DNA of 64,000 nucleotides from Candidatus Porifericomitaceae bacterium (GCA_965212005.1 OZ243038.1:2193432-2257431); one strand, 5' to 3'; positions 2,668 to 50,375 are shown, counted from the stretch's first letter. Notes: generated by a model from the letters alone, not told the origin. Translations and numbers: made by a program.

Positions 2668-4215
2668 GTGCACCGGCGGTCGGGGGCGCGGGTTTGCTCG
2701 CGCCGAGGCCCAGCCAGAAATACCCTGTGCTGGATCCTGTCGTTGTTGCCGGCGCTGCTGTACCTGCCTTGGGTGTCCGGCTGTACCGTGCCGCCCGATG
2801 CGACCATCCGTTTCGGCATCCCTGTCGCCCCGTTGACTTTGGACCCGCGCCGCAGCAGCAGTGCCGCCTCCGAGCGGATTGGCCAACTGCTCTACCGCGC
2901 CTTAGTGCGTTTTAATGCGCAGTATCAGCCGGTCCCGGACCTGGCTGACTGGGAGCAAATGGACCGTAGACACTATCGCTTCACGCTGGGCGATGCCGGG
3001 CGTCGCTTTCACGATGGAAGCCGCCTGGTCGCTGCCGACGTAAAAGCGACCTACGACTGGATACTGGATCCGGACAACGGTTCCGTAAAGAGGGGTGCGC
3101 TGGATTCCATCGAGCGGGTCGAGACGGCGGGAAAGGACGTGGTCGACTTTTTTCTGCGCCGCCCGGATGCGCTGTTTCCTGCTCACCTGACGGTGGGCAT
3201 CGTGCCGGCGGCTCTGATCGCCGCCGGGCACGTGCTGGATGATCAGCCGATGGGCAGCGGGCCGTTTCGCTTTCTCGCCCGGCAGGCAGATGACACCCTG
3301 TCGCTGCTGCGCGTGAAGGATGGGCAGCGGGTCGATTTTGTCGTCGTGAAGGAGCCTGTGGTGCGCGTGCTTAAACTGGTCCGCGGCGAGCTGGATTTGA
3401 TCCAGGGCGAAGTTCCCTACGAAATGCGCGCCTGGCTGGAGCGGCATCCGCAAGTGCGCGTGCAAAGCCGCCCCGGTAACGTCTATACTTACGTGGGCTT
3501 TCATTTACAGCATCCGCTGTTGCGTAACTTGCTGGTGCGGCAGGCGATTTCTTATGCCTTGGACCGGGACGCGATCATTCGCTACATGATGCACGGAGAA
3601 GCGGAGAAGGCCGACTCGATGATGCCATCGGGCCACTGGCTGAAACACCCTGCGTTGCCGGAATATGAGTATGATCCGCCACGCGCGCGGCGCTTGCTGC
3701 AGCAGGCCGGATACTACGACGGCCCCAGGCCTGCGCTGGAGTACAAGACTTCCGGCAATCCTTTCCGCATCCGCCTGGCGACCGTGATCCAGCATCAGTT
3801 GGCCGAGGTTGGGCTGCAGGTGCGGCTGCGCCCGCTTGAATGGGGCACTTTTTTCGGCGACGTCCGCGAGGGACGCTTTCAACTCTACAGCTTGTCCTGG
3901 GTAGGCATTAAACTGCCCGATATTTACCGTCGTGTCTTTCACAGCGAGTCAGTACCGCCAGCGGGTGCCAACCGCGGACGCTACGCCGATGCCACCGTTG
4001 ATCGTTTGATCGATGAAGCCGAGCAGGCACGGAACGAGACCTCGCGGCGCAGCGCCTACCTGCAATTGCAGGAGCATCTGCATCAGCAATTGCCCTACGT
4101 CCCTTTATGGCACGAACACTACGTGTTGGCACTGCGTTCCGAGATCATCGGCTACCAGTTGGATGCGGAGGGAAGCTACCGCGGGCTGAGCGAAATTTAC
4201 CGGGAAGCGCAGTGA
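2668..4215 (+). CDS. ABC transporter substrate-binding protein, family 5 (peptide/nickel/opine-type, DppA/OppA-like), lipoprotein-type signal peptide
   Basis: 575-aa ORF with SBP_bac_5-like architecture. N-terminal LLPALLYLPWVSGC lipobox. GTG 2668 proposed as start; the ORF frame is open from 2488. Confidence 0.75.
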   Translation: MHRRSGARVCSRRGPARNTLCWILSLLPALLYLPWVSGCTVPPDATIRFGIPVAPLTLDPRRSSSAASERIGQLLYRALVRFNAQYQPVPDLADWEQMDRRHYRFTLGDAGRRFHDGSRLVAADVKATYDWILDPDNGSVKRGALDSIERVETAGKDVVDFFLRRPDALFPAHLTVGIVPAALIAAGHVLDDQPMGSGPFRFLARQADDTLSLLRVKDGQRVDFVVVKEPVVRVLKLVRGELDLIQGEVPYEMRAWLERHPQVRVQSRPGNVYTYVGFHLQHPLLRNLLVRQAISYALDRDAIIRYMMHGEAEKADSMMPSGHWLKHPALPEYEYDPPRARRLLQQAGYYDGPRPALEYKTSGNPFRIRLATVIQHQLAEVGLQVRLRPLEWGTFFGDVREGRFQLYSLSWVGIKLPDIYRRVFHSESVPPAGANRGRYADATVDRLIDEAEQARNETSRRSAYLQLQEHLHQQLPYVPLWHEHYVLALRSEIIGYQLDAEGSYRGLSEIYREAQ

Positions 4216-4739
4216 ACGCGGCGGCCGAACCGTGTATCCGTGTGCTATTGGATCAGCAGCTTCTGCTGCTCGAGCGCGAAGACGGCCGTCTGGAGCGCAG
4301 TTATATGATCTCCAGCGCGGCCAAAGGCGTCGGTGAGCAGTGGGGGAGCGAGTGCACGCCGCGCGGACGGCACCGGATCCGCCGCTGCATCGGTGCCGGC
4401 TGCGCCGAAAATACCGTCTTTGCGGCCCGGCGCCCTACCGGTGAGCTTTATTCCGCCGAGCTTGCACGCCGTCATCCAAACCGCGACTGGATCCTGACGC
4501 GGATTTTGTGGCTCGAAGGTATAGAGGAAGGGTTCAACCGGGGCGGCCGGGTAGACACGGGCCGGCGCCATATCTACATTCACGGCACGCCGGACCAGAC
4601 CCGGCTCGGGATCCCCGGCTCCCACGGCTGTATCCGCATGAGCAACCAGGAGATCATTGAATTGTACAATGCTGTCCGGGAAGGCACGCCGGTGTTCATC
4701 CACGAGAGCGCCGACTCGGAGCACATACAGCACCGGTAG
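4212..4739 (+). CDS. L,D-transpeptidase (YkuD domain)
   Basis: HIYIHGTPDQTRLGIPGSHGCIRM is the catalytic H..(S/T)HGC motif. GTG start overlaps the upstream stop (GTGA). Confidence 0.8.
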   Translation: MNAAAEPCIRVLLDQQLLLLEREDGRLERSYMISSAAKGVGEQWGSECTPRGRHRIRRCIGAGCAENTVFAARRPTGELYSAELARRHPNRDWILTRILWLEGIEEGFNRGGRVDTGRRHIYIHGTPDQTRLGIPGSHGCIRMSNQEIIELYNAVREGTPVFIHESADSEHIQHR

Positions 4740-4753
4740 GCGGTTCCGGGTAA

Positions 4754-4762
4754 GGGCTGGCG
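4754..4762. repeat. 9-bp direct repeat GGGCTGGCG flanking the island, left copy (candidate target-site duplication)
   Basis: Identical 9-mer immediately outside both terminal inverted repeats, at 4754-4762 and 20463-20471. Confidence 0.6.
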
Positions 4763-4835
4763 CTAGCCGTTACTGAATCGAGTTGGTCAAAATGAACCAT
4801 TCTGAATTCCCTGCTGGCGAGCCGAACTCGCAGAG
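4763..4835. repeat. Left terminal inverted repeat (~73 bp) of the accessory island
   Basis: ctagccgttactgaatcgagttggtcaaaatgaaccattctgaattccctgctggcgagccgaactcgcagag. Its near-perfect reverse complement occurs at 20389-20462. Confidence 0.75.
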
Positions 4836-4838
4836 CAG

Positions 4839-5400
4839 TGAACCCCAAAATTTGGATAGTAGTTTAAGGTGTAGTTTAGTCTACATGAGGAACTACACAG
4901 AGGACAAAACGAAAGAAATACTCTCCTGGGCGGAAAGCGCGGGCTGCCTTGGCGGTGACCCGTGGAGATGGCACGAGCGCCGAGTTGGCACAGAAGTTCG
5001 GAGTGCACCCCAATAGGATTACCCAGTGGAAACGCGAAGCGCTCGATGGCATGGAGGATACCTTCACCGAGACGGCAAGCGCCGCCCCGAGCCGGAGGCG
5101 GACATCAAAACGCTGCAGGCCAAGGTCGGCTAACTCATTGTAGAGCGGTATTTTTTAGCCAGGGCCTTCGAGTGATCTTCCCCCTGTTGGGTAGCCATTC
5201 AAAGAGAGACAAAATATCTTATCCTGCCGCCTCTGCCTCGAACACAGCCGGCACCAGATAATGGAGTGAACTATGTGGTCGGGTGCCAGCCTGCATAAGC
5301 TCAGAAACATAGGGCATTTTTCGGGCCAGTAGCGGTGCCAATCCACGTTGACAATGGCGAAGAGCGGCAGTAGCTTTGAATAGTCGAAGGCTGTTGTTGG
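4839..5400 (+). mobile_element. IS3-family insertion sequence remnant (orfA with frameshifts, fragment of orfB integrase core; non-functional)
   Basis: Starts TGAACCCC (IS3-type IRL tip). Translation fragments AELAQKFGVHPNRITQWKREAL (HTH), EADIKTLQAKVG and LIVERYFLARA (leucine-zipper/frameshift region), VPIHVDNGEE (DDE core-like), in different frames. Confidence 0.6.
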
Positions 5401-5419
5401 CTGGGAGAGTAACGACGAG

Positions 5420-5872
5420 ATGATCGGCAGATATGGCTTGATATGCGCCGTTTTGGCATTGTTTCTGGGGGCAGGAGGGTGGTATGTGCTGGGTCCGGCA
5501 AAACTTGGGCGTGCGCCGGTGCCCGCCCCGCTGGCTGTTTCCGATTCCTCTGCCAGCGCTCCTGGCGATTCCGCCGCATCACCTTTTATAGGGCCGTCCG
5601 CTTCGAGCCCGGTCGCTTCCGGTGCGCCCGCACTTTTGTATCCGCAAAGCCCGGAAGAGCTGACGGGCATGAAGAGGCGTGCCGATCGGCTGATTGAAGA
5701 GACCGATGACTGGTTGAGCACCCTGCCGCCGTTACCCGGAGCAGGGACCGCCGCCGCTCCTGCTCCTGTCCTCAGCGATGAGGAATTTGAGCGCCGTCAG
5801 CTTGCCGTGAGCAACAAGGCGGCCCGCTTGCAGGAGCGTGCCGGGTCAGGCTCGCAGGAGGCCGGACCGTGA
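5420..5872 (+). CDS. Hypothetical membrane-anchored protein with Pro/Ala/Ser-rich low-complexity region
   Basis: N-terminal TM helix (LICAVLALFLGAGGWYVL) then PAS-rich linker. No recognisable domain. The start is uncertain. Confidence 0.35.
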   Translation: MIGRYGLICAVLALFLGAGGWYVLGPAKLGRAPVPAPLAVSDSSASAPGDSAASPFIGPSASSPVASGAPALLYPQSPEELTGMKRRADRLIEETDDWLSTLPPLPGAGTAAAPAPVLSDEEFERRQLAVSNKAARLQERAGSGSQEAGP

Positions 5873-5948
5873 TGTATCACCGCCGCTGGCGCCGTCTGTG
5901 CGGCTGGTTGTGCCATTGGGCCATGTTGGCGCCATTAGGGGTTGGCGG

Positions 5949-6395
5949 ATGAACATTATAAAAAAACGATTGTTGCTGGCCATACTTGCCATATTTGTAT
6001 TGTTTGGAACAGCGTCCTGCAGTTATCCCTTTTACATGAAAGCATCAGGTAGTTTGGATCATTCAATTTTGTTCCAGTTTTTCAAAGAGGAAAATGATGA
6101 AAAGCCATCGAAATTCGATATTACTGTGTTTACAGTTTATGGACAGACAGCCGATGCTCAATGGATCCCCATATGGCGTCTCATTGGCGGCCAGACTCTG
6201 AGTAGTATTGAGTACGGTATAAATATACAGTATAAGGGGCTTACTGAAATCGTGCCGCATAAACCACTCGCAAAGGGTAAGCAATATGAAGCGGTTGCGG
6301 CAGGTTCAGTATGGCCTAAGCCAGGGTTGGGACACGCGAGAATTGATTTCTTTTTTGATGAAGGAGGCAATTTGATTCAGGGCAGTATCAAGTAA
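5949..6395 (+). CDS. Small secreted/lipoprotein, cassette copy 1 (148 aa; MNIIKKRLLLAILAIFVLFGTASC...)
   Basis: Signal peptide with Cys at +1 region (..FGTASC). AGGGG RBS 9 nt upstream of ATG. Four paralogous copies in tandem. Confidence 0.65.
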   Translation: MNIIKKRLLLAILAIFVLFGTASCSYPFYMKASGSLDHSILFQFFKEENDEKPSKFDITVFTVYGQTADAQWIPIWRLIGGQTLSSIEYGINIQYKGLTEIVPHKPLAKGKQYEAVAAGSVWPKPGLGHARIDFFFDEGGNLIQGSIK

Positions 6396-6445
6396 TCATT
6401 ATGCCTCCAAGAACCGGCTGGTTGTTACATCTGCATGTTTAAGGA

Positions 6446-6958
6446 TTGCCCTCAGCGTTCCCTCCGGCATATCCCCGGGATGGTTGGGAATGGTCGTGTA
6501 TTTATAATGCAGCCGCTGCTTCGCGACGGGCAAGCGGCAGAGCTTTAACTGCGGATGAAATAGAGTTGCTAGAGGGGGAGGGGGTCAGTTTCGATGGGTT
6601 AGATGTTTCGAAGGTGCGGATTATCAACGGAAAATATATTCCGTTTCAGAATCGTCCCATGGCTCCGGATGGCTATATCTACTGGCCGGGTGAGTGCGGT
6701 AACTTAGCATCATGCGGTGGAGTAGGTACGGCAAGAACTTTCATCCATGAAATGACACATGTTTGGCAACACCAGCAGGGTGTCAACGTGCTCGGTAGAG
6801 GGTTCCTGCTCCAGGCTGCAAGGGGTTTGAGCCTCGGTCTTTTTGATCCATACAGCCTTAAGGGATACGATCCCAACGGTCCCAACCTACCCTTCAACAT
6901 CGAGCAGGAGGCCGAAGTAAAGAGACTCGAGTATATAAGATGGAAGAAATCTCAATGA
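6446..6958 (+). CDS. HExxH metallopeptidase-motif protein, DUF4157-like (HEMTHVWQHQ), cassette copy 1
   Basis: GKYIPFQNRPMAPDGYIYWPG...TFIHEMTHVWQHQ matches the DUF4157 pattern (HExxHvxQ) from memory. TTG start; no signal peptide. Confidence 0.55.
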   Translation: MPSAFPPAYPRDGWEWSCIYNAAAASRRASGRALTADEIELLEGEGVSFDGLDVSKVRIINGKYIPFQNRPMAPDGYIYWPGECGNLASCGGVGTARTFIHEMTHVWQHQQGVNVLGRGFLLQAARGLSLGLFDPYSLKGYDPNGPNLPFNIEQEAEVKRLEYIRWKKSQ

Positions 6959-6985
6959 TGAAAACAATATCGTAGGGGTTGGCGG

Positions 6986-7423
6986 ATGAACATTATAAAA
7001 AAACGATTGTTGCTGGCCATACTTGCCATATTTGTATTGTTTGGAGCGTCCTGCAGTTATTCATTTTCCATGAAAGTATCAGGTAATTTGGATCATTCAA
7101 TTTTGTTCCAGTTTTTCAAAGAGGAAAATGATGAAAAGCCATCGAAATTCGATATTACTGGGTTTACAGTTTATAGACATACAGCCGATGCTCAATGGAT
7201 CGTCATATGGGATCTAATTGGCAGCCAGACTCTGAGCAGTATTGAGTACGGTATAAAGTATAAGGGGCTTACTGAAATCGTGCCGCATAAACCACTCGCA
7301 AAGGGTAAGCAATATGAAGCGATTGCGGAAGGTTCAGTCTGGCCTCGAGGGCCGACGGGGAGCGCGGGAATTGTTTTCTTTTTTGATGAAGGAGGCAATT
7401 TGATTCAGGGCTGGATCAAGTAA
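6986..7423 (+). CDS. Small secreted/lipoprotein, cassette copy 2 (145 aa)
   Basis: Paralog of 5949-6395 with substitutions clustered in the C-terminal third. Confidence 0.65.
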   Translation: MNIIKKRLLLAILAIFVLFGASCSYSFSMKVSGNLDHSILFQFFKEENDEKPSKFDITGFTVYRHTADAQWIVIWDLIGSQTLSSIEYGIKYKGLTEIVPHKPLAKGKQYEAIAEGSVWPRGPTGSAGIVFFFDEGGNLIQGWIK

Positions 7424-7473
7424 TCATTATGCTTCCAAGAACCGGCTGGTTGTTACATCTGCATGTTTAAGGA

Positions 7474-7989
7474 TTGCCCTCAGCGTTCCCTCCGGCATAT
7501 CCCCGGGATGGTTGGGAATGGTCGTGTATTTATAATGCAGCCGCTGCTTCGCGACGGGCAAGCGGCAGAGCTTTAACTGCGGATGAAGTAAAGGTGGCAA
7601 AGGAGGTCTTTGACAATAAGATCGATTATTCGAAGGTGCGGATTATCGACGGAAAATATATTCCGTTTCAGAATCGTCCCATGGCTCCGGATGGCTATAT
7701 CTACTGGCCGGGTGAGTGCGGTAACTTAGCATCATGCGGTGAAGTAGATACGGCAGACACTTTCATCCATGAAATGACACATGTTTGGCAACACCAGCAT
7801 GGTGTCAACGTGCTCGGTAGAGGGTTCCTGCTCCAGGCTGCAAGGGGTTTGAGCCTCGGTCTTTTTGATCCATACAGCCTTAAGGGATACGATTCCAAAA
7901 AAGCCTTCAGCTCCTACAATATCGAGCAGCAGGGCCAAATAGCGGTAGGCATCTATCGTGGCCATTATCCAAACAACATCAACTACTGA
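7474..7989 (+). CDS. HExxH/DUF4157-like protein, cassette copy 2 (distinct N-linker and C-terminus)
   Basis: Same HEMTHVWQHQ core. Differs from copy 1 at ADEVKVAKEVFDNKIDYS and in the C-terminal 35 aa. Confidence 0.55.
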   Translation: MPSAFPPAYPRDGWEWSCIYNAAAASRRASGRALTADEVKVAKEVFDNKIDYSKVRIIDGKYIPFQNRPMAPDGYIYWPGECGNLASCGEVDTADTFIHEMTHVWQHQHGVNVLGRGFLLQAARGLSLGLFDPYSLKGYDSKKAFSSYNIEQQGQIAVGIYRGHYPNNINY

Positions 7990-8005
7990 TGCTAGGGGTT
8001 GGCGG

Positions 8006-8443
8006 ATGAACATCATAAAAAAACGATTGTTGCTGGCCATACTTACCATATTTGTATTGTTTGGAACAGCGTCCTGCAGTTATCCCTTTTACATGAAAGC
8101 ATCAGGTAGCTTGGATCATTCAATTTTGTTCCGGTTTTTCAAAGAGAAAAATGATGAAAAGCCATCGAAATTCAAGATTAATATATTTATAGTTCAGGAA
8201 CAGACAGCCGATGCTCAATGGATCGTCATATGGCATCTACAAGGCAGCCAGACTCTGAGCAGTATTGAGTACGGTATAAAGTATAAGGGGCTTGCTGAAA
8301 TCGTGCCGCATAAACCACTCGCAAAGGGTAAGCAATATCGAGCATATGCAAATGGTTCAGTATGGCCTGGAAGGGGGGGGAGCGCGGTAACTGATTTCTT
8401 TTTTGATGAAGGAGGCAATTTGATTCAGGGCAGTATCAAGTAA
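8006..8443 (+). CDS. Small secreted/lipoprotein, cassette copy 3 (145 aa)
   Basis: MNIIKKRLLLAILTIFVLFGTASC... The ORF frame is open from 7958, but a conserved ATG/RBS lies at 8006. Confidence 0.65.
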   Translation: MNIIKKRLLLAILTIFVLFGTASCSYPFYMKASGSLDHSILFRFFKEKNDEKPSKFKINIFIVQEQTADAQWIVIWHLQGSQTLSSIEYGIKYKGLAEIVPHKPLAKGKQYRAYANGSVWPGRGGSAVTDFFFDEGGNLIQGSIK

Positions 8444-8472
8444 TCATTATGCCGCCAAGAACCGGCTGGTTA

Positions 8473-9034
8473 TTACATCTGCATGTTTAAGGATTGCCCT
8501 CAGCGTTCCCTCCGGCATATCCCCGGGATGGTTGGGAATGGTCGTGTATTTACAATGCAGCCGCTGCTTCGCGACGGGCAAGCGGCAGAGCTTTAACTGC
8601 GGATGAAGTGCGGCAGAGCTTTAACTGCGGATGAAATAGAGTTGCTAGAGGGGGAGGGGGTCAGTTTCGATGGGTTAGATGTTTCGAAGGTGCGGATTAT
8701 CAACGGAAAATATATTCCGTTTCAGAATCGTCCCATGGCTCCGGATGGCTATATCTACTGGCCGGGTGAGTGCGGTAACTTAGCATCATGCGGTGGAGTA
8801 GGTACGGCAAGAACTTTCATCCATGAAATGACACATGTTTGGCAACACCAGCAGGGTGTCAACGTGCTCGGTAGAGGGTTCCTGCTCCATGCTGCAAGGG
8901 TTTTGAGCCGCGATCTTTTTGATCCATACAGCCTTAAACACTACGATCCCAACGGTCCCAACCTACCCTTCAACATCGAGCAGGAGGCCCAAGTAAAGGT
9001 CCTCGAGTATATAAGATGGAAGGAATCTCAATGA
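8473..9034 (+). pseudogene. HExxH/DUF4157-like gene, cassette copy 3, N-terminal frame broken by a 28-bp internal duplication (possible restart at ATG 8603)
   Basis: gcggcagagctttaactgcggatgaa is duplicated at 8575-8632, shifting the conserved TTG-start leader out of frame. Downstream 143 codons are intact. Confidence 0.55.
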
Positions 9035-9061
9035 TGAAAACAATATCGTAGGGGTTGGCGG

Positions 9062-9499
9062 ATGAATATTATAAAAAAACGATTGTTGCTGGCCATACTT
9101 GCCATATTTGTATTGTTTGGAGCGTCCTGCAGTTATTCATTTTCCATGAAAGTATCAGGTAATTTGGATCATTCAATTTTGTTCCAGTTTTTCAAAGAGG
9201 AAAATGATGAAAAGCCATCGAAATTCGATATTACTGGGTTTACAGTTTATAGACATACAGCCGATGCTCAATGGATCGTCATATGGGATCTAATTGGCAG
9301 CCAGACTCTGAGCAGTATTGAGTACGGTATAAAGTATAAGGGGCTTACTGAGATCGTGCCGCATAAACCACTCGCAAAAGGTAAGCAATATGATGTTGTT
9401 GTGCACGGTTCAGTCTGGCCTCGAGGGCCGACGGGGGGCACGGGATTTGTTTTCTTTTTTGATGAAGGAGGCAATTTTATTCAGGGCTGGATCAAGTAA
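9062..9499 (+). CDS. Small secreted/lipoprotein, cassette copy 4 (145 aa)
   Basis: Nearly identical to copy 2. Confidence 0.65.
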   Translation: MNIIKKRLLLAILAIFVLFGASCSYSFSMKVSGNLDHSILFQFFKEENDEKPSKFDITGFTVYRHTADAQWIVIWDLIGSQTLSSIEYGIKYKGLTEIVPHKPLAKGKQYDVVVHGSVWPRGPTGGTGFVFFFDEGGNFIQGWIK

Positions 9500-9549
9500 T
9501 CATTATGCTTCCAAGAACCGGCTGGTTGTTACATCTGCATGTTTAAGGA

Positions 9550-9861
9550 TTGCCCTCAGCGTTCCCTCCGGCATATCCCCGGGATGGTTGGGAATGGTCG
9601 TGTATTTACAAGGATACGCCTAATTATAACCTCGTCGTTATAACAGAAGATGACGGTTACGCGGCGAGGATGTTCTACGTTAAGCCAGCGTTTGGAATTA
9701 AGGAAGGCACATAAGTATATTCTGGTCAAGTCATTGGCACATATCAAAATATAGGAGACAGAAAAGGGCATAGTGGGATCACAGAGCACGTTCATGTAGA
9801 AATTCGGCTCGAAGGTAAGTTATTATATCCCACAGACATCATTCCGATTCCTGAAAACTAG
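9550..9861 (+). pseudogene. Truncated 4th HExxH/DUF4157-like gene (first 20 codons) fused to a frameshifted M23 (LytM) peptidase 3' fragment
   Basis: LPSAFPPAYPRDGWEWSCIY then ...NLVVITEDDGYAARMFYVKPAFGIKEGT*. After a +1 shift: YSGQVIGTYQNIGDRKGHSGITEHVHVEIRLEGKLLYP (M23 HxH/GxxGxxGxT-like C-terminus). Ends 1 nt before the ATG at 9863. Confidence 0.6.
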
Positions 9862-9862
9862 C

Positions 9863-10516
9863 ATGCGCAGTTTAAGATCTTTGCTCCGATTGCTCGCCAG
9901 CAGCGTGATCATCATTCATTCCGCTTTTACGTGTGCTGCCGGCATGACTGATTGTGATGCTTTGGAACTGATTTCAGGTCACTCTGATTACAATTCGCTA
10001 GTCTGTGCTGGTGTTCAGAAAGTGGAAGAGCGAAAATATGAGGAAGCGATTTCTCTATTTGAGCAGGCCCTGGCTGTTCCGCTACGTGAGTGGTCTAACT
10101 TCCTGTTATTACCCCGGCTGGCTTTGGCACATCATCTGTCCGGCTCCGGACAAAAAGCGGAAAGCGTTTTGCTGAAAGCTGAGTTGACGTTGTCGGTATT
10201 TTTGGGTTTGATGACATGCGAACAGACGGAGACGGGTTACGTTGTTCGTCGAGCGTATGAAGATTATCTCACTGGCCAGGTGGGCAATGAGGTTGCAGCA
10301 ATTATGTGTGGCAATGAATATCATTACGTATCTGAGCGGGATACACTTGAACAAGTGCTGCTGGAAGCGAAGTTGATAGAGAATTATTTTGAGATCAAGC
10401 GGCAGATCGGCTTATCTGAAGGCGATGACTCCCAGGCTGCAGTGAGGCGTGGATTGCACGTCGGTGTCGGGGCAGGCCGTTATTGTTATAACAGGCGGCA
10501 TCATGGACAGGGTTAG
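9863..10516 (+). CDS. Secreted 217-aa protein, standalone paralog of the ankyrin protein N-terminal domain (copy 1)
   Basis: Signal peptide. Shares blocks DCDAxEL, YNSLVCxG, KYEEAIxxFEQAL, LLPRLALAHHLSGS, TLSVF, NYFEIKRQIG with the ankyrin protein N-domain. Confidence 0.6.
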   Translation: MRSLRSLLRLLASSVIIIHSAFTCAAGMTDCDALELISGHSDYNSLVCAGVQKVEERKYEEAISLFEQALAVPLREWSNFLLLPRLALAHHLSGSGQKAESVLLKAELTLSVFLGLMTCEQTETGYVVRRAYEDYLTGQVGNEVAAIMCGNEYHYVSERDTLEQVLLEAKLIENYFEIKRQIGLSEGDDSQAAVRRGLHVGVGAGRYCYNRRHHGQG

Positions 10517-10783
10517 TCTTCGATACAAAGATGCTCCATCGGATCGACTCACCAGTATAACCACGCGGAGGGGTTACGCGGTGGGGCAGCTTTACGTTAC
10601 TGCGGCACCTGGCATCCAGTCTGGAGTAAGCGCAGGGGCTGGTCAAGTTATTAGCACACGTCAAGGGCGGGGAGGCCGGCATCCTGGGAGCACAGAACGC
10701 GTTCCTGCAGAGCTTGCACATAACAGTCAGGTATGTGGAGGCCGGGGCGCTGATTTCGCTTCCGTAAGTAGCAGCCTGTACAA

Positions 10784-13549
10784 ATGAAGTCCTTGCTCTG
10801 GTGGCTGGTCGGCAGCGTTATTATTATTCATTCGGCTTTCGCGCATGCTGATGATGATAAGTTTGATTGTGATGCCTGGGAGCTTTTCGGGACAAGATTT
10901 GAGGGCTACGATTATTACAATTCGCTAGTCTGTTCTGGTATTAAGAACATGGAAAAGGGGCAATATGAGGAAGCCGTTGTCCAATTTGAGGAGGCCCTGA
11001 CTGTTCCGCTAAATGAATGGCCTAACTTTATGTTATTGCCCAGACTGGCTTTGGCCTATCATCTGTCCGGTTCCAGAGAAAAGGCAAAAAGAGTTCTGCT
11101 AAAAGCGAAGCGGACGCTGTCGGTATTTACTGGTTTGATTAAATGCGAAGTAAGAGATATCCCCACTTGGAGCGATTATATTATTATGCGCCAGGCAAAT
11201 GGTATTGCCCTCTCCTCCCGCGACGGAATGTGTGGTGAGATATATTTTCCATATTATGAGAGTAAGTCTCTTGGTGCAATGCGATATGATGCGAGGGTTG
11301 TAAAGAATTATTTTGAGATCAAGCGGCAGATGGGCTTTTCCACCCCCCTTCATGAGACGGCGCAAGAGGGGCGCACAGCAGTCATCCAGACGCTGATTGA
11401 GGCAGGTGCAGACGTCAATGTGGAAGATAGCGACGGCGAGACCCCGCTTCATAGGGCGGCCCGGGAAGGCCACACAGCAGTCGTCCAGACACTGATTCGG
11501 GCAGGTGCGGACGTCAATGCGAAGGATGGCGAGAGGAAGACCCCACTTCATGGGGCGGCGCGGGAAGGCGACACAGCAGTTATCCAGATGCTGATTGAGG
11601 CAGGTGCGGACGTCCATGCAAAGTACAGAGACGGTTCCCCGCTGCATGAGGCGGCATACAAAGGCCGCACAGAAGCCATCCGTATGCTGATTAAGGCAGG
11701 TGCGGACGTCAATGCAAGGACGTCGACTGACTACACCTCGCTTCATGGGGCGGCGTACAAGGGCTACCCGGAAACCGTCCGTATGCTGATTGAAGCAGGC
11801 GCAGACGTCAATGCGGAGGATATTTTATACGGTGAGACCCCGCTTCGTTTGGCGGCAAAAAAAGAACAAACAGAAGTCATCCGCATGCTGATTGAGGCAG
11901 GCGCGGACGTCAACATGGAGGCAATAGACGGGAGCACCTGGACTCCGCTTTACTGGGCGGTACAGGGGGGGCACATAGAAGTCATCAAGGTGCTGATTGA
12001 GGCAGGCGCGGATGTCAATGCAAGGTCCAGATACGGCGAGCCCCCGCTTCATGAGGCGGTCCGGGAAGGCCTGTCAGAAGGTGTTTCTGTGTTGATTGGG
12101 GCAGGCGCGGATGTCAATGCGAGAGATGGCCGCGGCGAGACCCCGCTTCATAATGCGGTATTGAGAGGCCGGTCAGAAAGTGTTTCTACGTTGATTGAGG
12201 CAGGTGCGGACGTCAATGCGAAGAATAACGAAGGCTGGACTCCGCTTTACTGGGCGGTACAGGAGGGGCGCATAGAAGTCATCCGCATGCTGATTGAGGC
12301 AGGCGCGGACGTCAACATGGAGGCAATAGACGGGAGCAACTGGACTTCGCTTTACTGGGCGGTACAGGAGGGGCACATAGAAGTCATCAAAGTGCTGATT
12401 GAGGCAGGCGTGGATGTCAATGCGACGTCCAGATACGGCGAGCCCCCGCTTCATGAGGCGGTCCGGGAAGGCCTGTCAGAAGGTGTTTTTGTGTTGATTG
12501 GGGCAGGTGCGGATGTCAATGCGAAAGACAGCCTCGGCGAGACCCCGCTTCGTTTGGCGGCAAAAACAGAACAAACAGAAGTCATCCGCATGCTGATTGA
12601 GGCAGGCGCAGACGTCAACATGGAGGCAATAGACGGGAGCAACTGGACTCCGCTTTACTGGGCGGTACAGGAGGGGGACATAGAAGCCATCCGCATGCTG
12701 ATTGAGGCAGGCGCGGATGTCAACGCAAGGTCCAGATACGGCGAGCCCCCGCTTCATGAGGCGGCCCGGGAAGGCCACAGAGCAGTCGTCCAGGCACTGA
12801 TTCGGGCAGGCGTGGATGTCAATGCGAAAGATAGCGGCGGCGAGACCCCGCTTCATGAGGTGGCACTGTCAGGCGATCCAGAACTTGTTGATGTGCTGAT
12901 TGAGGCAGGCGCGGATGTCAATGCAAGGTCCAGATACGGTGAGACCCCGCTTCATGAAGCGGTCCAGGAAGGCCACACAGCAGTCGTCCAGGCACTGATT
13001 CGGGCAGGCGTGGATGTGAATGCGAAAGATAGCGGTGGCGAGACCCTGCTTCATGAGGCGGCACTGTCTGGCGATCCAGAACTTGTTGATGTGCTGATTG
13101 AGGCAGGCGCGGATGTCAATGCGAAAGGTAGCAGCGGCGAGCCCCTGCTTCATGAGGCGGCCCGGGAAGGCCACACAGCAGTCGTCCGGGCACTGATTCG
13201 GGCAGGCGTGGATGTGAATGCGAAAGATAGCGGCGGCGAGACCCCGCTTCATGAGGCGGCATGGTCAGGCCTGTCAGAAGGTGTTTCTACGTTGATTGAG
13301 GCAGGTGCGGACGTCAATGCGAAGGATAACGAAGGCTGGACTCCGCTTCACAGGGCGGCACAGTCAGGCGAGCCAGAACTTGTTGATGTGCTGGTTGCCG
13401 CAGGCGCAGACGTGAATGCAAAGGATGCAGACGGAGACACGCCGTTGGATAAGACAAAATCCAAAATGGATCAAATGGATCGAAAAAATGAAGAATACGA
13501 TAAGTATCGGACAGTCGTTGACTTGCTGGATAGGGCAGGCGCAAGATAA
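10784..13549 (+). CDS. Secreted ankyrin-repeat protein, 921 aa (signal peptide + ~170-aa Cys-containing N-domain + ~21 ANK repeats + Lys/Asp-rich tail), copy 1
   Basis: Signal peptide ends IIIHSAFA|HADD. Repeats are 33 aa each, e.g. TPLHxAAxEGHTAVVQALIRAGADVNAKDxxGE. Confidence 0.85.
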   Translation: MKSLLWWLVGSVIIIHSAFAHADDDKFDCDAWELFGTRFEGYDYYNSLVCSGIKNMEKGQYEEAVVQFEEALTVPLNEWPNFMLLPRLALAYHLSGSREKAKRVLLKAKRTLSVFTGLIKCEVRDIPTWSDYIIMRQANGIALSSRDGMCGEIYFPYYESKSLGAMRYDARVVKNYFEIKRQMGFSTPLHETAQEGRTAVIQTLIEAGADVNVEDSDGETPLHRAAREGHTAVVQTLIRAGADVNAKDGERKTPLHGAAREGDTAVIQMLIEAGADVHAKYRDGSPLHEAAYKGRTEAIRMLIKAGADVNARTSTDYTSLHGAAYKGYPETVRMLIEAGADVNAEDILYGETPLRLAAKKEQTEVIRMLIEAGADVNMEAIDGSTWTPLYWAVQGGHIEVIKVLIEAGADVNARSRYGEPPLHEAVREGLSEGVSVLIGAGADVNARDGRGETPLHNAVLRGRSESVSTLIEAGADVNAKNNEGWTPLYWAVQEGRIEVIRMLIEAGADVNMEAIDGSNWTSLYWAVQEGHIEVIKVLIEAGVDVNATSRYGEPPLHEAVREGLSEGVFVLIGAGADVNAKDSLGETPLRLAAKTEQTEVIRMLIEAGADVNMEAIDGSNWTPLYWAVQEGDIEAIRMLIEAGADVNARSRYGEPPLHEAAREGHRAVVQALIRAGVDVNAKDSGGETPLHEVALSGDPELVDVLIEAGADVNARSRYGETPLHEAVQEGHTAVVQALIRAGVDVNAKDSGGETLLHEAALSGDPELVDVLIEAGADVNAKGSSGEPLLHEAAREGHTAVVRALIRAGVDVNAKDSGGETPLHEAAWSGLSEGVSTLIEAGADVNAKDNEGWTPLHRAAQSGEPELVDVLVAAGADVNAKDADGDTPLDKTKSKMDQMDRKNEEYDKYRTVVDLLDRAGAR

Positions 13550-13768
13550 TTGGGACTCGTCAGTGCCAGCCGGATAAGAACGTCCGGTCATGGATATGTC
13601 CTAACCGCCTTCGATGTCCGGAAAAACTGTTTTGCTTGCAAAGTCAAAGCGAGCAACGTTGGTTGCTAGCCGTTACGGCTAGATCGGCGCCAATCCACGT
13701 TGACAATGGCGAAGAGCGGCAGTAACTTTGAATAGTAGAAGGCTTTATGCCGATTCCTGAAAACTAGC

Positions 13769-14422
13769 ATGCGCAGTTCAAGATATTTGCTCCGATTGCT
13801 CGTCGGCAGCGTGATCATCATTCATTCCGCTTTTACGTGTGCTGCCGGCATGACTGATTGTGATGCTTTGGAACTGATTTCAGGTCACTCTGATTACAAT
13901 TCGCTAGTCTGTGCTGGTGTTCAGAAAGTGGAAGAGCGAAAATATGAGGAAGCGATTTCTCTATTTGAGCAGGCCCTGGCTGTTCCGCTACGTGAGTGGT
14001 CTAACTTCCTGTTATTACCCCGGCTGGCTTTGGCACATCATCTGTCCGGCTCCGGACAAAAAGCGGAAAGCGTTTTGCTGAAAGCTGAGTTGACGTTGTC
14101 GGTATTTGTGGGTTTGATGACATGCGAACAGACGGAGACGGGTTACGTTGTTCGTCGAGCGTATGAAGATTATCTCACTGGCCAGGTGGGCAATGAGGTT
14201 GCAGCAATTATGTGTGGCAATGAATATCATTACGTATCTGAGCGGGATACACTTGAACAAGTGCTGCTGGAAGCGAAGTTGATAGAGAATTATTTTGAGA
14301 TCAAGCGGCAGATCGGCTTATCTGAAGGCGATGACTCCCAGGCTGCAGTGAGGCGTGGATTGCACGTCGGTGTCGGGGCAGGCCGTTATTGTTATAACAG
14401 GCGGCATCATGGACAGGGTTAG
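13769..14422 (+). CDS. Secreted 217-aa N-domain paralog, copy 2
   Basis: About 98% identical to 9863-10516. Confidence 0.6.
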   Translation: MRSSRYLLRLLVGSVIIIHSAFTCAAGMTDCDALELISGHSDYNSLVCAGVQKVEERKYEEAISLFEQALAVPLREWSNFLLLPRLALAHHLSGSGQKAESVLLKAELTLSVFVGLMTCEQTETGYVVRRAYEDYLTGQVGNEVAAIMCGNEYHYVSERDTLEQVLLEAKLIENYFEIKRQIGLSEGDDSQAAVRRGLHVGVGAGRYCYNRRHHGQG

Positions 14423-14689
14423 TCTTCGATACAAAGATGCTCCATCTAATCGGCTCACCAGTATAACCACGCGGGGGGGTTACGCGGTGGGGCAGCGTAA
14501 CGTTACTGCGACGCCTGGAACTCAGTCTGGAGTAAGCGCAGGGGCTGGTCAAGTTATTAGCACACGTCAAGAGTGGGGAGGCCGGCATCCTGGGAGCACA
14601 GAACGCGTTCCTGCAGAGCTTGCACATAACAGTCAGGTATGTGGAGGCCGGGGCGCTGATTTCGCTTCCGTAAGTGGCAGCCTGTACAA

Positions 14690-16456
14690 ATGAAGTCCTT
14701 GCTCTGGTGGCTGGTCGGCAGCGTTATTATTATTCATTCGGCTTTCGCGCATGCTGATGATAAGTTGGATTGTGATGCCTGGGAGCTTTACGGGACAGGC
14801 TATCATTATTACAATTCGCTAGTCTGTTCTGGTATTAAGAACATGGAAAAGGGGCAATATGAGGAAGCCATTGTCCAATTTGAGGAGGCTCTGACTATTT
14901 GGATACATGAATGGCCTAACTTTATGTTATTGCCCAGACTGGCTTTGGCCTATCATCTGTCCGGTTCCAGAGAAAAGGCAAAAAGAGTTCTGCTAAAAGC
15001 GAAGCGGACGCTGTCGATACTTACTGGTTTGATTAAATGCGAAGAAAGAGATACCACCACTTTGAGAGATTATATTATTATGCGCCAGGCGAATGGTATT
15101 GCCCTCTCTGGAGACGACGTAATGTGTGGTTCGGTATTATATTTTCCATATTATGAGAGTAAGTCTCTTGGTGCAATGCGATATGATGCGAGGATTGTAA
15201 AGAATTATTTTGAGATCAAGCGGCAGATGGGCTTTTCCACCCCCCTTCATGAGACGGCGCAAGAGGGGCGCACAGCAGTCATCCAGACGCTGATTGAGGC
15301 AGGTGCAGACGTCAATGCGGAAGATAGCGACGGCGAGACCCCGCTTCATAGGGCGGCCCGGGAAGGCCACACAGCAGTCGTCCAGGCACTGATTCGGGCA
15401 GGCGCGGACGTCAATGCGAAGGATGGCGAGAGGAAGACCCCACTTCATGGGGCGGCGCGGGAAGGCGACACAGCAGTTATCCAGATGCTGATTGAGGCAG
15501 GTGCGGACGTCAATGCAAAGTACAGAGACGGCGGCTCCCCGCTGCATGAGGCGGCATACAAAGGCCGCACAGAAGCCATCCGTATGCTGATTAAGGCAGG
15601 TGCGGACGTCAATGCAAGTACGTCGACTGACTACACCCCGCTTCATGGGGCGGTGTACAAGGGCTACCCGGAAATCATCCGTATGCTGATTGAAGCAGGC
15701 GCGGACGTCAATGCGGCGGAGCGTTACTACGGTGAGACCTCGCTTCGTTTGGCGGCAAAAAAAGAACGAACAGAAGTCATCCGCATGCTGATTGAGGCAG
15801 GCGCGGACGTCAACATGGAGGCAATAGACGGGAGCAACTGGACTCCGCTTTACTGGGCGGTACAGGAGGGGCACATAGAAGTCATCAAGGTGCTGATTGG
15901 GGCAGGTGCGGATGTCAATGCAAGGTCCAGATACGGTGAGCCCCCGCTTCATGGGGCGGTCCAGAAAGGCCTGTCAGAAGGTGTTTCTGTGTTGATTGGG
16001 GCAGGCGCGGATGTCAATGCGAAAGATAGCCGCGGCGAGACCCCGCTTTATGAGGCGGCATTGAGAGGCCGGTCAGAAGGTATTTCTACGTTGATTGGGG
16101 CAGGTGCGGACGTCAATGCGAAGAATAACGAAGGCTGGACTCCTCTTCACAGGGCGGCACAGTCATGGTGGTCAGGCCTGTCAAAAGGTGTTTCTACGTT
16201 GATTGGGGCAGGTGCGGACGTCAATGCGAAGGATAACGAAGGCTGGACTCCGCTTCACAGGGCGGCACTGTCAGGCGATCCAGAACTTGTTGATGTGCTG
16301 GTTGCCGCAGGCGCAGACGTGAATGCAAAGGATGCAGACGGAGACACGCCGTTGGATAAGACAAAATCCAAAATGGATCAAATGGATCGAAAAAATGAAG
16401 AATACGATAAGTATCGGACAGTCGTTGACTTGCTGGATAGGGCAGGCGCAAGATAA
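14690..16456 (+). CDS. Secreted ankyrin-repeat protein, 588 aa, copy 2 (in-frame loss of ~11 ANK repeats, mosaic)
   Basis: Same N-domain and C-tail. The middle repeats are absent relative to copies 1 and 3. Junction region AAQSWWSGLSKGVSTL. Confidence 0.8.
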   Translation: MKSLLWWLVGSVIIIHSAFAHADDKLDCDAWELYGTGYHYYNSLVCSGIKNMEKGQYEEAIVQFEEALTIWIHEWPNFMLLPRLALAYHLSGSREKAKRVLLKAKRTLSILTGLIKCEERDTTTLRDYIIMRQANGIALSGDDVMCGSVLYFPYYESKSLGAMRYDARIVKNYFEIKRQMGFSTPLHETAQEGRTAVIQTLIEAGADVNAEDSDGETPLHRAAREGHTAVVQALIRAGADVNAKDGERKTPLHGAAREGDTAVIQMLIEAGADVNAKYRDGGSPLHEAAYKGRTEAIRMLIKAGADVNASTSTDYTPLHGAVYKGYPEIIRMLIEAGADVNAAERYYGETSLRLAAKKERTEVIRMLIEAGADVNMEAIDGSNWTPLYWAVQEGHIEVIKVLIGAGADVNARSRYGEPPLHGAVQKGLSEGVSVLIGAGADVNAKDSRGETPLYEAALRGRSEGISTLIGAGADVNAKNNEGWTPLHRAAQSWWSGLSKGVSTLIGAGADVNAKDNEGWTPLHRAALSGDPELVDVLVAAGADVNAKDADGDTPLDKTKSKMDQMDRKNEEYDKYRTVVDLLDRAGAR

Positions 16457-16674
16457 TTGGGACTCGTCAGTGCCAGCCGGATGAGAACGTCCGGTCATGG
16501 ATATGTCCTAACCGCCTTCGATGTCCGGAAAAACTGTTTTGCTTGCAAAGTCAAGCGAGCAACGTTGGTTGCTAGCCGTTACGGCTAGATCGGCGCCAAT
16601 CCACGTTGACAATGGCGAAGAGCGGCAGTAGCTTTGCATAGTAGAAGGCTTTATGCCGATTCCTGAAAACTAGC

Positions 16675-17328
16675 ATGCGCAGTTTAAGATCTTTGCTCCG
16701 ATTGCTCGCCAGCAGCGTGATCATCATTCATTCCGCTTTTACGTGTGCTGCCGGCATGACTGATTGTGATGCTTTGGAACTGATTTCAGGTCACTCTGAT
16801 TACAATTCGCTAGTCTGTGCTGGTGTTCAGAAAGTGGAAGAGCGAAAATATGAGGAAGCGATTTCTCTATTTGAGCAGGCCCTGGCTGTTCCGCTACGTG
16901 AGTGGTCTAACTTCCTGTTATTACCCCGGCTGGCTTTGGTACATCATCTGTCCGGCTCCGGACAAAAAGCGGAAAGCGTTTTGCTGAAAGCTGAGTTGAC
17001 GTTGTCGGTATTTGTGGGTTTGATGACATGCGAACAGACGGAGACGGGTTACGTTGTTCGTCGAGCGTATGAAGATTATCTCACTGGCCAGGTGGGCAAT
17101 GAGGTTGCAGCAATTATGTGTGGCAATGAATATCATTACGTATCTGAGCGGGATACACTTGAACAAGTGCTGCTGGAAGCGAAGTTGATAGAGAATTATT
17201 TTGAGATCAAGCGGCAGATCGGCTTATCTGAAGGCGATGACTCCCAGGCTGCAGTGAGGCGTGGATTGCACGTCGGTGTCGGGGCAGGCCGTTATTGTTA
17301 TAACAGGCGGCATCATGGACAGGGTTAG
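16675..17328 (+). CDS. Secreted 217-aa N-domain paralog, copy 3
   Basis: About 99% identical to copy 1. Confidence 0.6.
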   Translation: MRSLRSLLRLLASSVIIIHSAFTCAAGMTDCDALELISGHSDYNSLVCAGVQKVEERKYEEAISLFEQALAVPLREWSNFLLLPRLALVHHLSGSGQKAESVLLKAELTLSVFVGLMTCEQTETGYVVRRAYEDYLTGQVGNEVAAIMCGNEYHYVSERDTLEQVLLEAKLIENYFEIKRQIGLSEGDDSQAAVRRGLHVGVGAGRYCYNRRHHGQG

Positions 17329-17592
17329 TCTTCGATACGGAGATGCTCCATCGGATCGGCTCACCAGTATAACCACGGGGGGATACGCGGTGGGGCAGCT
17401 TTACGTTACTGCGGCGCCTGGAACTCAGTCTGGAGTTAGCGCAGGGGCTGGTCAAGTTATTAGCACACGTCAAGAGCGGGGAGGCCGGCATCCTGGGAGC
17501 ACAGAACGCGTTCCTGCAGAGCTTGCACATAACAGTCAGGTATGTGGAGGCCGGGGCGCTGATTTCGCTTCCGTAAGTAGCAGCCTGTACAA

Positions 17593-50118: not shown

Positions 50119-50375
50119 GGAAGGGGATGAGCGGAATGTTTAGTATGGATCAGTCAAAAGAAATGCTGCACGAGACTTTGTGGTATTACACAAGTTCTCA
50201 GGGCGCTTTGGACTACGAGAAACTTTGCAAGCTCCTTTGGGCCCTTGACTAGCCGTTCACGGTGCGCCTTGCGTCTTGCGTTGGCGGTGACCGCAGGCTA
50301 TGATCGTTTTTTCACCCATTGTACGGATGCCTCCCACCGGGGAGGCCGAAACGAGTCTAACGAGTCTTAAGAAAA

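Follow-up and report, generated by a model that had tools for sequence, protein, structure and literature searches.

What kind of event produced the non-coding spacers that separate the ankyrin-repeat gene units of a genomic island in Candidatus Porifericomitaceae bacterium, and was mobile-element sequence its motor? The question was addressed in a 64-kb window, i.e. the whole stretch of 64,000 nt that was analyzed. A preliminary description of this DNA had proposed that insertion sequence (IS)- and inverted repeat (IR)-derived sequence at the junctions mediated the amplification of the units. Its reading of the spacers as inter-unit joints of an amplification was confirmed: the two copies (13550-13768 and 16457-16674) are 98.2% identical over 219 nt and recur with the unit period of 3906/2906 nt. 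On balance, we favor the view that both derive from a single novel join-point of a head-to-tail amplification, which non-homologous joining created once and homologous exchange then multiplied.

The island and its ends

The spacers lie in an island of 15.7 kb (4763-20462) with a GC content of 43-58%, compared to 60-62% in the host flanks. Its neighbors are a ykuD-type L,D-transpeptidase gene (4107-4739), which stops 15 nt before it, and a metK-ahcY-metF cluster, in which metK lies about 70 nt after it. Both ends consist of a 73-nt IR abutted by a 9-bp direct repeat (Table 1), indicating that the IR tips are the real ends of an inserted element, and the island thus has the inverted repeats and the target-site duplication of a transposable element. 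The window encodes no cognate transposase for this IR; its sole transposase is an IS3 orfA pseudogene. The IR had no match in genome, metagenome, viral, or plasmid collections. Exact-pattern scans with the core of the 60-mer described below, the outer 21-mer of the IR, and the junction palindrome retrieved nothing from GTDB genomes, JGI metagenomes, or IMG/VR, and blastn searches of plasmids with the IR region, the IS3 region, and the spacer gave nothing. No empty site was found among the nearest YkuD relatives, which are at most 70% identical and have other genes following ykuD.

The IS3 orfA pseudogene belongs to a one-ended remnant next to IR-L. Its product is 46-53% identical to ISGxy1 OrfA, the Pfam domain HTH_Tnp_1 is found in the remnant only at 4889-5140, and recognizable IS3 sequence stops near 5175; no IS3 right end was found in the window. 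At the opposite end of the island, eight bases (20382-20389, TGACCTTT) stand between the end of the array homology and the inner end of IR-R. They start like an IS3-family terminus (TGACC), in a stretch too short to assign. The IR-R tip and its flank (CTAGGGGCTGGCGGAG, 20459-20473) resemble the starts of the lipoprotein units described next (TAGGGGTTGGCGGATG at 5936, 6973, 7993, and 9049), with a BLAST E of 0.22 that may reflect chance.

Upstream of the ankyrin genes, the island carries an orphan ORF (5420-5872), for which no homologue was found except itself, and four tandem units encoding a lipoprotein and an HExxH protein (5936-9620; period about 1030 nt; 75-100% identical). Each of these holds a 145-aa lipoprotein gene and a gene of roughly 170 aa with an HEMTHVWQH motif, and in the fourth the conserved 5' leader of the second gene is fused to an M23 C-terminal fragment. 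Neither protein matched a Pfam or NCBIfam family. An M23 peptidase pseudogene (Pfam PF01551), N-terminally truncated and interrupted by an in-frame stop, ends at 9861.

The tandem array

Three units make up the array, with boundaries at 9843/9844 and at 13581/13582, the latter being equivalent to 20381/20382 (Table 1). Their ankyrin-repeat genes encode 921, 588, and 918 aa, respectively. Copy 2 of the gene (14690-16456) is 333 codons shorter than copy 1 (10784-13549) and copy 3, and the deletion corresponds to ~ ten 33-residue repeats, in register. The 217-aa protein of the unit (9863-10516) and the first 190 residues of the ankyrin proteins (10784-11341) share ~ 50% identity, so that each unit already holds an older tandem pair of paralogues. 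Outside the window, the 2.5-Mb contig encodes at least two additional paralogues of the 217-aa protein, P0006 and P0007 (96-99% identical).

The array units have diverged by 2-5%, and their variant sites form mosaic blocks in which the agreeing pair changes along the unit: variants are shared by units 1 and 3 at 9873-9899 and ~ 11600-13380, by units 2 and 3 at ~ 10547-11240, and by units 1 and 2 at 13394-13565. Together with the missing ankyrin codons of unit 2, this mosaicism is the signature of continuing homologous unequal exchange and gene conversion between units. The array spans 10.5 kb of near-identical sequence, and its copy number is worth checking against long reads.

M23 C-terminal remnants (9616-9861, 10560-10783, and their equivalents in units 2 and 3) lie directly upstream of the 217-aa and ankyrin genes, with 1 nt separating the M23 stop from the start codon of the 217-aa gene. 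On L001, a metagenomic contig from a distant relative, a homologue 57% identical to the 217-aa protein likewise follows an M23 remnant (9830-10000). Judged from the sequences, this order suggests an old pairing of a toxin fragment with an immunity-like gene. As it is found both in L001 and before each ankyrin gene, the arrangement is ancestral, which makes the break at 13745-13749, inside the M23 3' end, a derived and novel joint.

L001 also contains two internally deleted IS3-family mini-elements of 416 nt (9288-9703 and 12378-12792) with 40-nt IRs beginning TGAACCGCCCCGG. The first is situated upstream of the M23 remnant and the immunity-like homologue and the second upstream of a 508-aa gene, both inside a direct repeat whose copies are 3090 nt apart, which indicates that IS-derived sequence also marks unit boundaries in the array of this relative. 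As a source of the spacer, these mini-elements were rejected, being of a different IS3 subgroup and unrelated to the spacer.

Table 1. Features of the island, the tandem array, and the inter-unit spacers (positions counted from the first nucleotide of the window).
Feature	Position	Strand	Remarks
IR-L, 73 nt	4763-4835	+	Preceded by 9-bp direct repeat GGGCTGGCG at 4754-4762
One-ended IS3-family remnant	4839-5175	+	Left end TGAACCCC...; orfA pseudogene with frameshifts and a stop
60-mer, copy A	5333-5392	+	Last base 27 nt before the ATG of ORF 5420-5872, the first of the island
Tandem array, three units	9844-20381	+	
Amplified unit 1	9844-13749	+	3906 nt; M23 tail, 217-aa gene, M23-like remnant, 921-aa ankyrin gene, 32-nt flank, 168-nt junction block
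Native 3' flank of ankyrin gene, 32 nt	13550-13581	+	Common to all three copies (16457-16488, 20350-20381), 94-97% identity
Junction segment, 84 nt	13582-13665	+	Copy 2: 16489-16571; no source detected
Hairpin palindrome CTAGCCG-TTA-CGGCTAG, 17 nt (CTAGCCGTTACGGCTAG)	13666-13682	+	Copy 2: 16572-16588
60-nt copy of 5333-5392	13685-13744	+	Copy 2: 16591-16650
TTATG, 5 nt	13745-13749	+	Novel joint between 60-mer and M23 tail
Last five codons and stop of M23 pseudogene	13750-13768	+	Copy 2: 16656-16674; original: 9844-9862; native 5' flank of 217-aa gene
Amplified unit 2	13750-16655	+	2906 nt; ankyrin gene 333 codons shorter
Second spacer copy	16457-16674	+	Three substitutions and one single-base deletion relative to the first
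Amplified unit 3	16656-20381	+	Without junction block; followed by TGACCTTT and the inner end of IR-R
IR-R, 73 nt	20390-20462	-	97% complementary to IR-L; followed by GGGCTGGCG at 20463-20471

Composition of the spacers

Homology among the three ankyrin copies ends at 13581/16488/20381, and the part of the spacer that is confined to inter-unit positions is a block of 168 nt (13582-13749). Blocks after ankyrin copies 1 and 2 had been described as ~ 185 bp long; they are present, with this shorter junction-only part. The block consists of an 84-nt segment, a 17-nt hairpin palindrome, a copy of a 60-nt sequence (60-mer) that follows 2 nt later, and five bases at the novel joint to the M23 tail. 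Neither the block nor the 60-mer or the 17-mer occurs at the edges of the array: the left edge (9843/9844) is native M23 pseudogene, and the right edge (20381/20382) leads through 8 nt into IR-R. Comparison of the 84-nt segment with the IRs, the IS3 remnant, 5176-5323, the M23 regions, and the retrieved loci revealed no significant similarity, and plasmids gave no hit either.

The M23 tail that follows the block was said to comprise seven codons. It matches the original exactly and covers the last five codons and the stop (P-I-P-E-N-stop), plus two of the three bases of the preceding codon, which is partly conserved. The M23-derived tail of each spacer amounts to 19-22 nt.

Rfam and tRNA scans of the window gave no RNA feature. 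No intrinsic terminator was predicted in the spacer, and its RNA fold is unremarkable (z=-2.2). Today, the junction block is a plain intergenic spacer of units 2 and 3. Reading the blocks as integron attC sites was rejected by eye, as R''/R' cores misfit, an integrase is missing, and the blocks are copies of each other and not diverse sites.

The 60-mer

The preliminary description had placed a copy of the block sequence at 5338-5390, inside the IS3 remnant. The copy is real and somewhat longer (60 nt, 95% identity, E 2e-23), with sharp boundaries in both contexts and a 36-mer, GCCAATCC...GCAGTA, that is exact at 5337-5372, 13689-13724, and 16595-16630. It does not lie within recognizable IS3 sequence, as copy A starts ~ 160 nt past the last of it. 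No Pfam match was found for 5176-5420 in any frame (5130-5425 scanned, stops masked). The best alignment of this region to ISGxy1 OrfB has p=0.08, and the right end of the 60-mer resembles the IS3 left end with p=0.057. A similarity of 5300-5356 to the HTH region of ISGxy1 OrfB was rejected as not significant. From these alignments, an IS3 origin of the 60-mer is not demonstrated.

Copy A differs from the junction copies at 2-3 of 60 positions. We also considered a leftward extension of this homology into the palindrome (GGCCAG for GGCTAG); it was rejected since the 9-nt leader has 3/9 differences, compared to 2-3/60 in the 60-mer itself.

At the junctions, the 60-mer ends 24 nt before the ATGs of the 217-aa genes at 13769 and 16675, a distance close to the 27 nt of copy A. 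It contains TTGACA-17 nt-TA[A/G]CTT, i.e. a perfect -35 hexamer and a weak -10, and the version TTGACA-17-TAGCTT scored below the threshold of the promoter scan tool. Judging by this motif and its position, the 60-mer may supply a captured promoter.

The junction palindrome

Bases 1-11 of IR-L and the final 6-8 bases of IR-R, tips outward, together explain the entire 17-nt palindrome. Tip sequence is present, as claimed earlier, in a different arrangement: the two tips overlap by 5 nt with one mismatch and are not abutted, which for 11-nt tips would span 22 nt. The IR interior continues on neither side, where the flanks are GGTTG and ATCGG. No homology to the IR was found past 11-12 nt at the junction. 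The match to the IR is one of 12 nt (to 4762-4773), with E about 1-3 in an unanchored BLAST search, comparable to several chance matches. This 12-nt match takes in G4762, one base outside the IR.

Other observations point to kinship. Occurrences of the tip 11-mer, CTAGCCGTTAC, in the 64-kb window are restricted to the two IR tips and the two junctions, with 0.03 expected; for the 168-nt block, a first-order Markov model gives an expectation of 2.6e-5. The tetranucleotide CTAG is depleted 8.6-fold in the window (27 observed, 233 expected), and 18 of the 27 sites fall inside the island; chance matches containing CTAG are even less likely on account of this depletion. As the 11-mer is restricted to tips and junctions, CTAG is avoided, and the two tips explain every base, the relationship between the 17-mer and the IR tips is probably real rather than due to chance.

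It was further noted that the 17-mer is exactly what would be left of an IR-L...IR-R element that lost everything between IR-L base 12 and IR-R base -7. The simplest reading is that the 17-mer represents the collapsed relic of an IR-bounded element whose interior was lost by slippage across its own hairpin. Tn10 reportedly behaves in a similar manner: its nearly precise excision, in work ascribed to Ross, Swan & Kleckner in 1979 and Foster et al. in 1981, is said to leave a palindromic remnant without the help of transposase, through slippage between short direct repeats that the IR hairpin brings together. As with the Tn10 remnants, the 17-mer retains only the two outermost segments of the element in native outward orientation, and both Tn10 and the present island have 9-bp target duplications. 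The Tn10 remnant, however, is said to be 50 bp long and still flanked by its 9-bp duplication, whereas here 17 nt remain, without a flanking duplication (CGTTGGTTG and ATCGGCGCC match at 1/9 positions), and the presumed deletion endpoints inside the IRs (GTTAC/TGAA... and ...GTAAC/GGCTAG) share only a 2-nt AC direct repeat. The missing 9-bp repeat indicates that the 17-mer is not a simple scar of in-situ excision. The two Tn10 papers (Cell 16:733 and Cell 23:215) appear in the reference list of bioRxiv 10.1101/2023.06.07.543989.

An intergenic sequence at 50246-50263, TTGACTAGCCGTTCACGG, resembles the junction palindrome with its left flank (TTGCTAGCCGTTACGG) and adjoins a local GC dip at 49-50 kb; 6 of 500 shuffles scored as well.

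Origin of the joint

The same fusion is found between the units and is missing at the outer edges of the array, and the units bear evidence of homologous exchange with one another, as expected of a join-point. That the 168-nt block is missing at both edges also indicates that it was not the homology that started an unequal crossing-over. The mechanism put forward earlier, unequal crossing-over on IS/IR homology, predicts a repeat at both array edges, which lack any copy. Moreover, the nearest copy of the 60-mer lies 4.4 kb upstream, so that crossing-over with 5333-5392 would instead duplicate an 8.3-kb unit.

We hypothesize that a unit would have been joined head-to-tail to itself once, by a non-homologous (illegitimate or remodeling) joining, and that its copy number and sequence would then have been altered by RecA-type unequal exchange and gene conversion among the units. 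The ~ ten ankyrin repeats missing from unit 2 would have been lost in the course of this exchange, and the IR-tip hairpin and the 60-mer would be passengers fixed in the joint and not the substrate of crossing-over. In one version, the block would represent what once lay downstream of the ankyrin gene; an IR-bounded element would have inserted there and collapsed, and unit 3 would have lost the block at a later time. This account has its costs. It offers no source for the 84-nt segment, it requires either a later deletion in unit 3, if the block is native downstream flank, or the assembly of several pieces, if it is filler, and it needs a separate event for the paralogy of the 60-mer with 5333-5392. 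The 17-mer without flanking 9-bp direct repeats and a promoter-like site below the scan threshold likewise weigh against it.

A modified form of the initial idea, in which an IR element mediated the amplification and was then remodeled, appears possible though unlikely. Two IR-bounded elements would flank the cargo, or a circle of element and cargo would integrate into a resident element. Exchange between the element copies would duplicate the whole cargo and set the ankyrin gene with its 32 nt and 84 nt, the right end of the cargo, beside an element and the 60-mer, the left end of the cargo. Finally, the middle element would collapse to the 17-nt base of its stem, a 4.4-kb deletion would bring the 60-mer to the M23 tail, and the outer element copies would be trimmed. 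This scheme explains why IR tip and 60-mer are adjacent, in the same order and orientation as at the left end of the island (4763-4773 ... 5333-5392), and a missing target-site duplication around the 17-mer is expected from recombination between two element copies. The divergence of copy A from the junction copies is similar to that between units, two more copies of the unit exist elsewhere in the genome, and mini-IS elements stand at the unit boundaries of the similar array in L001. However, at least five events are needed, no second IR arm or element center is detectable (the IR is related neither to 5176-5332 nor to the 84 nt), and the divergence of the 9-nt leader of copy A (GGCCAGTAG) is too great for an IR-R tip. 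Here, too, the missing block at the array's outer edges speaks against the scheme.

Serial template switching during replication (MMBIR/FoSTeS type) could have copied nearby short pieces into the joint, an explanation that we regard as improbable. Candidate templates are the 12 nt at 4762-4773, 6 nt at the IR-R tip, the 60 nt at 5333-5392, and, for the 84 nt, a site elsewhere. The patchwork of sharply bounded short segments with 2-nt and 5-nt fillers fits such a process, as does the position of the two identifiable sources within 630 nt of each other, in the order and orientation of the joint, and the inclusion of G4762 in the 12-nt match. It would nevertheless take five or six switches, with microhomologies of only 0-3 nt at the switch points and a further switch to the far IR-R tip for the perfect palindromic completion GGCTAG, and the 84-nt template has no identified source.

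Little credence is likewise given to coincidence, i.e. to a block that is the original downstream non-coding DNA of the ankyrin gene with an ordinary 7-bp hairpin, in which only the 60-mer is a true repeat. The unanchored E-value of the 12-nt match, the end of the homology at 11-12 nt, and the 17-mer without a target-site duplication would all fit, but the expected frequencies of the tip 11-mer in the window and the block, the explanation of all 17 nt by two tips, and the strong avoidance of CTAG in the genome speak against chance.

We consider it very improbable that the IR-tip hairpin and the 60-mer act together in recombination and expression, as a functional module of an undescribed element that is bounded by IRs and captures cassettes, in loose analogy to attC-bounded cassettes; if true, the tips would stitch together toxin, immunity, or ankyrin units, each given the same promoter.

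The circle-junction intermediates of the initial proposal, or (IS)2-type abutted ends trapped in the array, can practically be dismissed: apart from the presence of both tip sequences, the sole point in their favor, such a junction would read ...GTAACGGCTAG-spacer-CTAGCCGTTAC... with full IRs extending outward, whereas the 17-mer has the opposite polarity to IRR-IRL (IR-L tip, then IR-R tip) and the wrong length, its tips overlap, its flanks are not IR interior, and the window lacks a cognate transposase.

Comparison with known systems

The closest known system to our favored reading is the join-point of bacterial tandem gene duplication-amplification, as in the lac and his systems of Salmonella and E. 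coli. There as here, an identical novel joint lies between head-to-tail units and is missing at the array edges, the original breakpoints show little or no homology, later expansion, contraction, and mosaicism proceed by homologous unequal exchange, and foreign upstream sequence is put before the first gene of the unit. The present joint differs in being a 168-nt patchwork with a mobile-element relic and not a clean fusion of two sequences, and the array is old enough for its units to have diverged by 2-5%. Promoter capture at the joints of tandem duplications is treated as an established phenomenon in a passage of PMC11111574 that cites Anderson & Roth 1978.

Amplicons flanked by IS26, IS1, or IS3 have a complete IS copy between units and at both ends (e.g. 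PMC11253626). Such IS-mediated or translocatable-unit amplification resembles the present case in that mobile-element-derived sequence stands between units of cargo genes; here, in contrast, 17 nt from the tips are all that is left, the array edges are free of it, and a cognate transposase is missing.

The gene content recalls the orphan toxin/immunity arrays of polymorphic toxin systems, with short toxin-like C-terminal fragments (the M23 remnant and the HExxH proteins), a small secreted or lipoprotein gene after each fragment, and a comparable arrangement in L001. Unlike in those arrays, the proteins are only putative toxin and immunity proteins that match no Pfam or NCBIfam family, and the junction block is non-coding and not a conserved cassette boundary.

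Implications

An event of a known kind is described here, which raises no new mechanistic question unless the IR element represents an active, uncharacterized transposon family. The element with the 73-nt IR and the 9-bp duplication, unmatched in the searched collections, is the part most worth following up. For annotators, the spacer should not be read as an IS fragment or as an active transposon junction. For the uncultured gammaproteobacterium that carries it, the finding means that a horizontally acquired island would have expanded its ankyrin and immunity-like genes through a single illegitimate joint and subsequent homologous exchange, a mobile-element relic and possibly a captured promoter being fixed in that joint.
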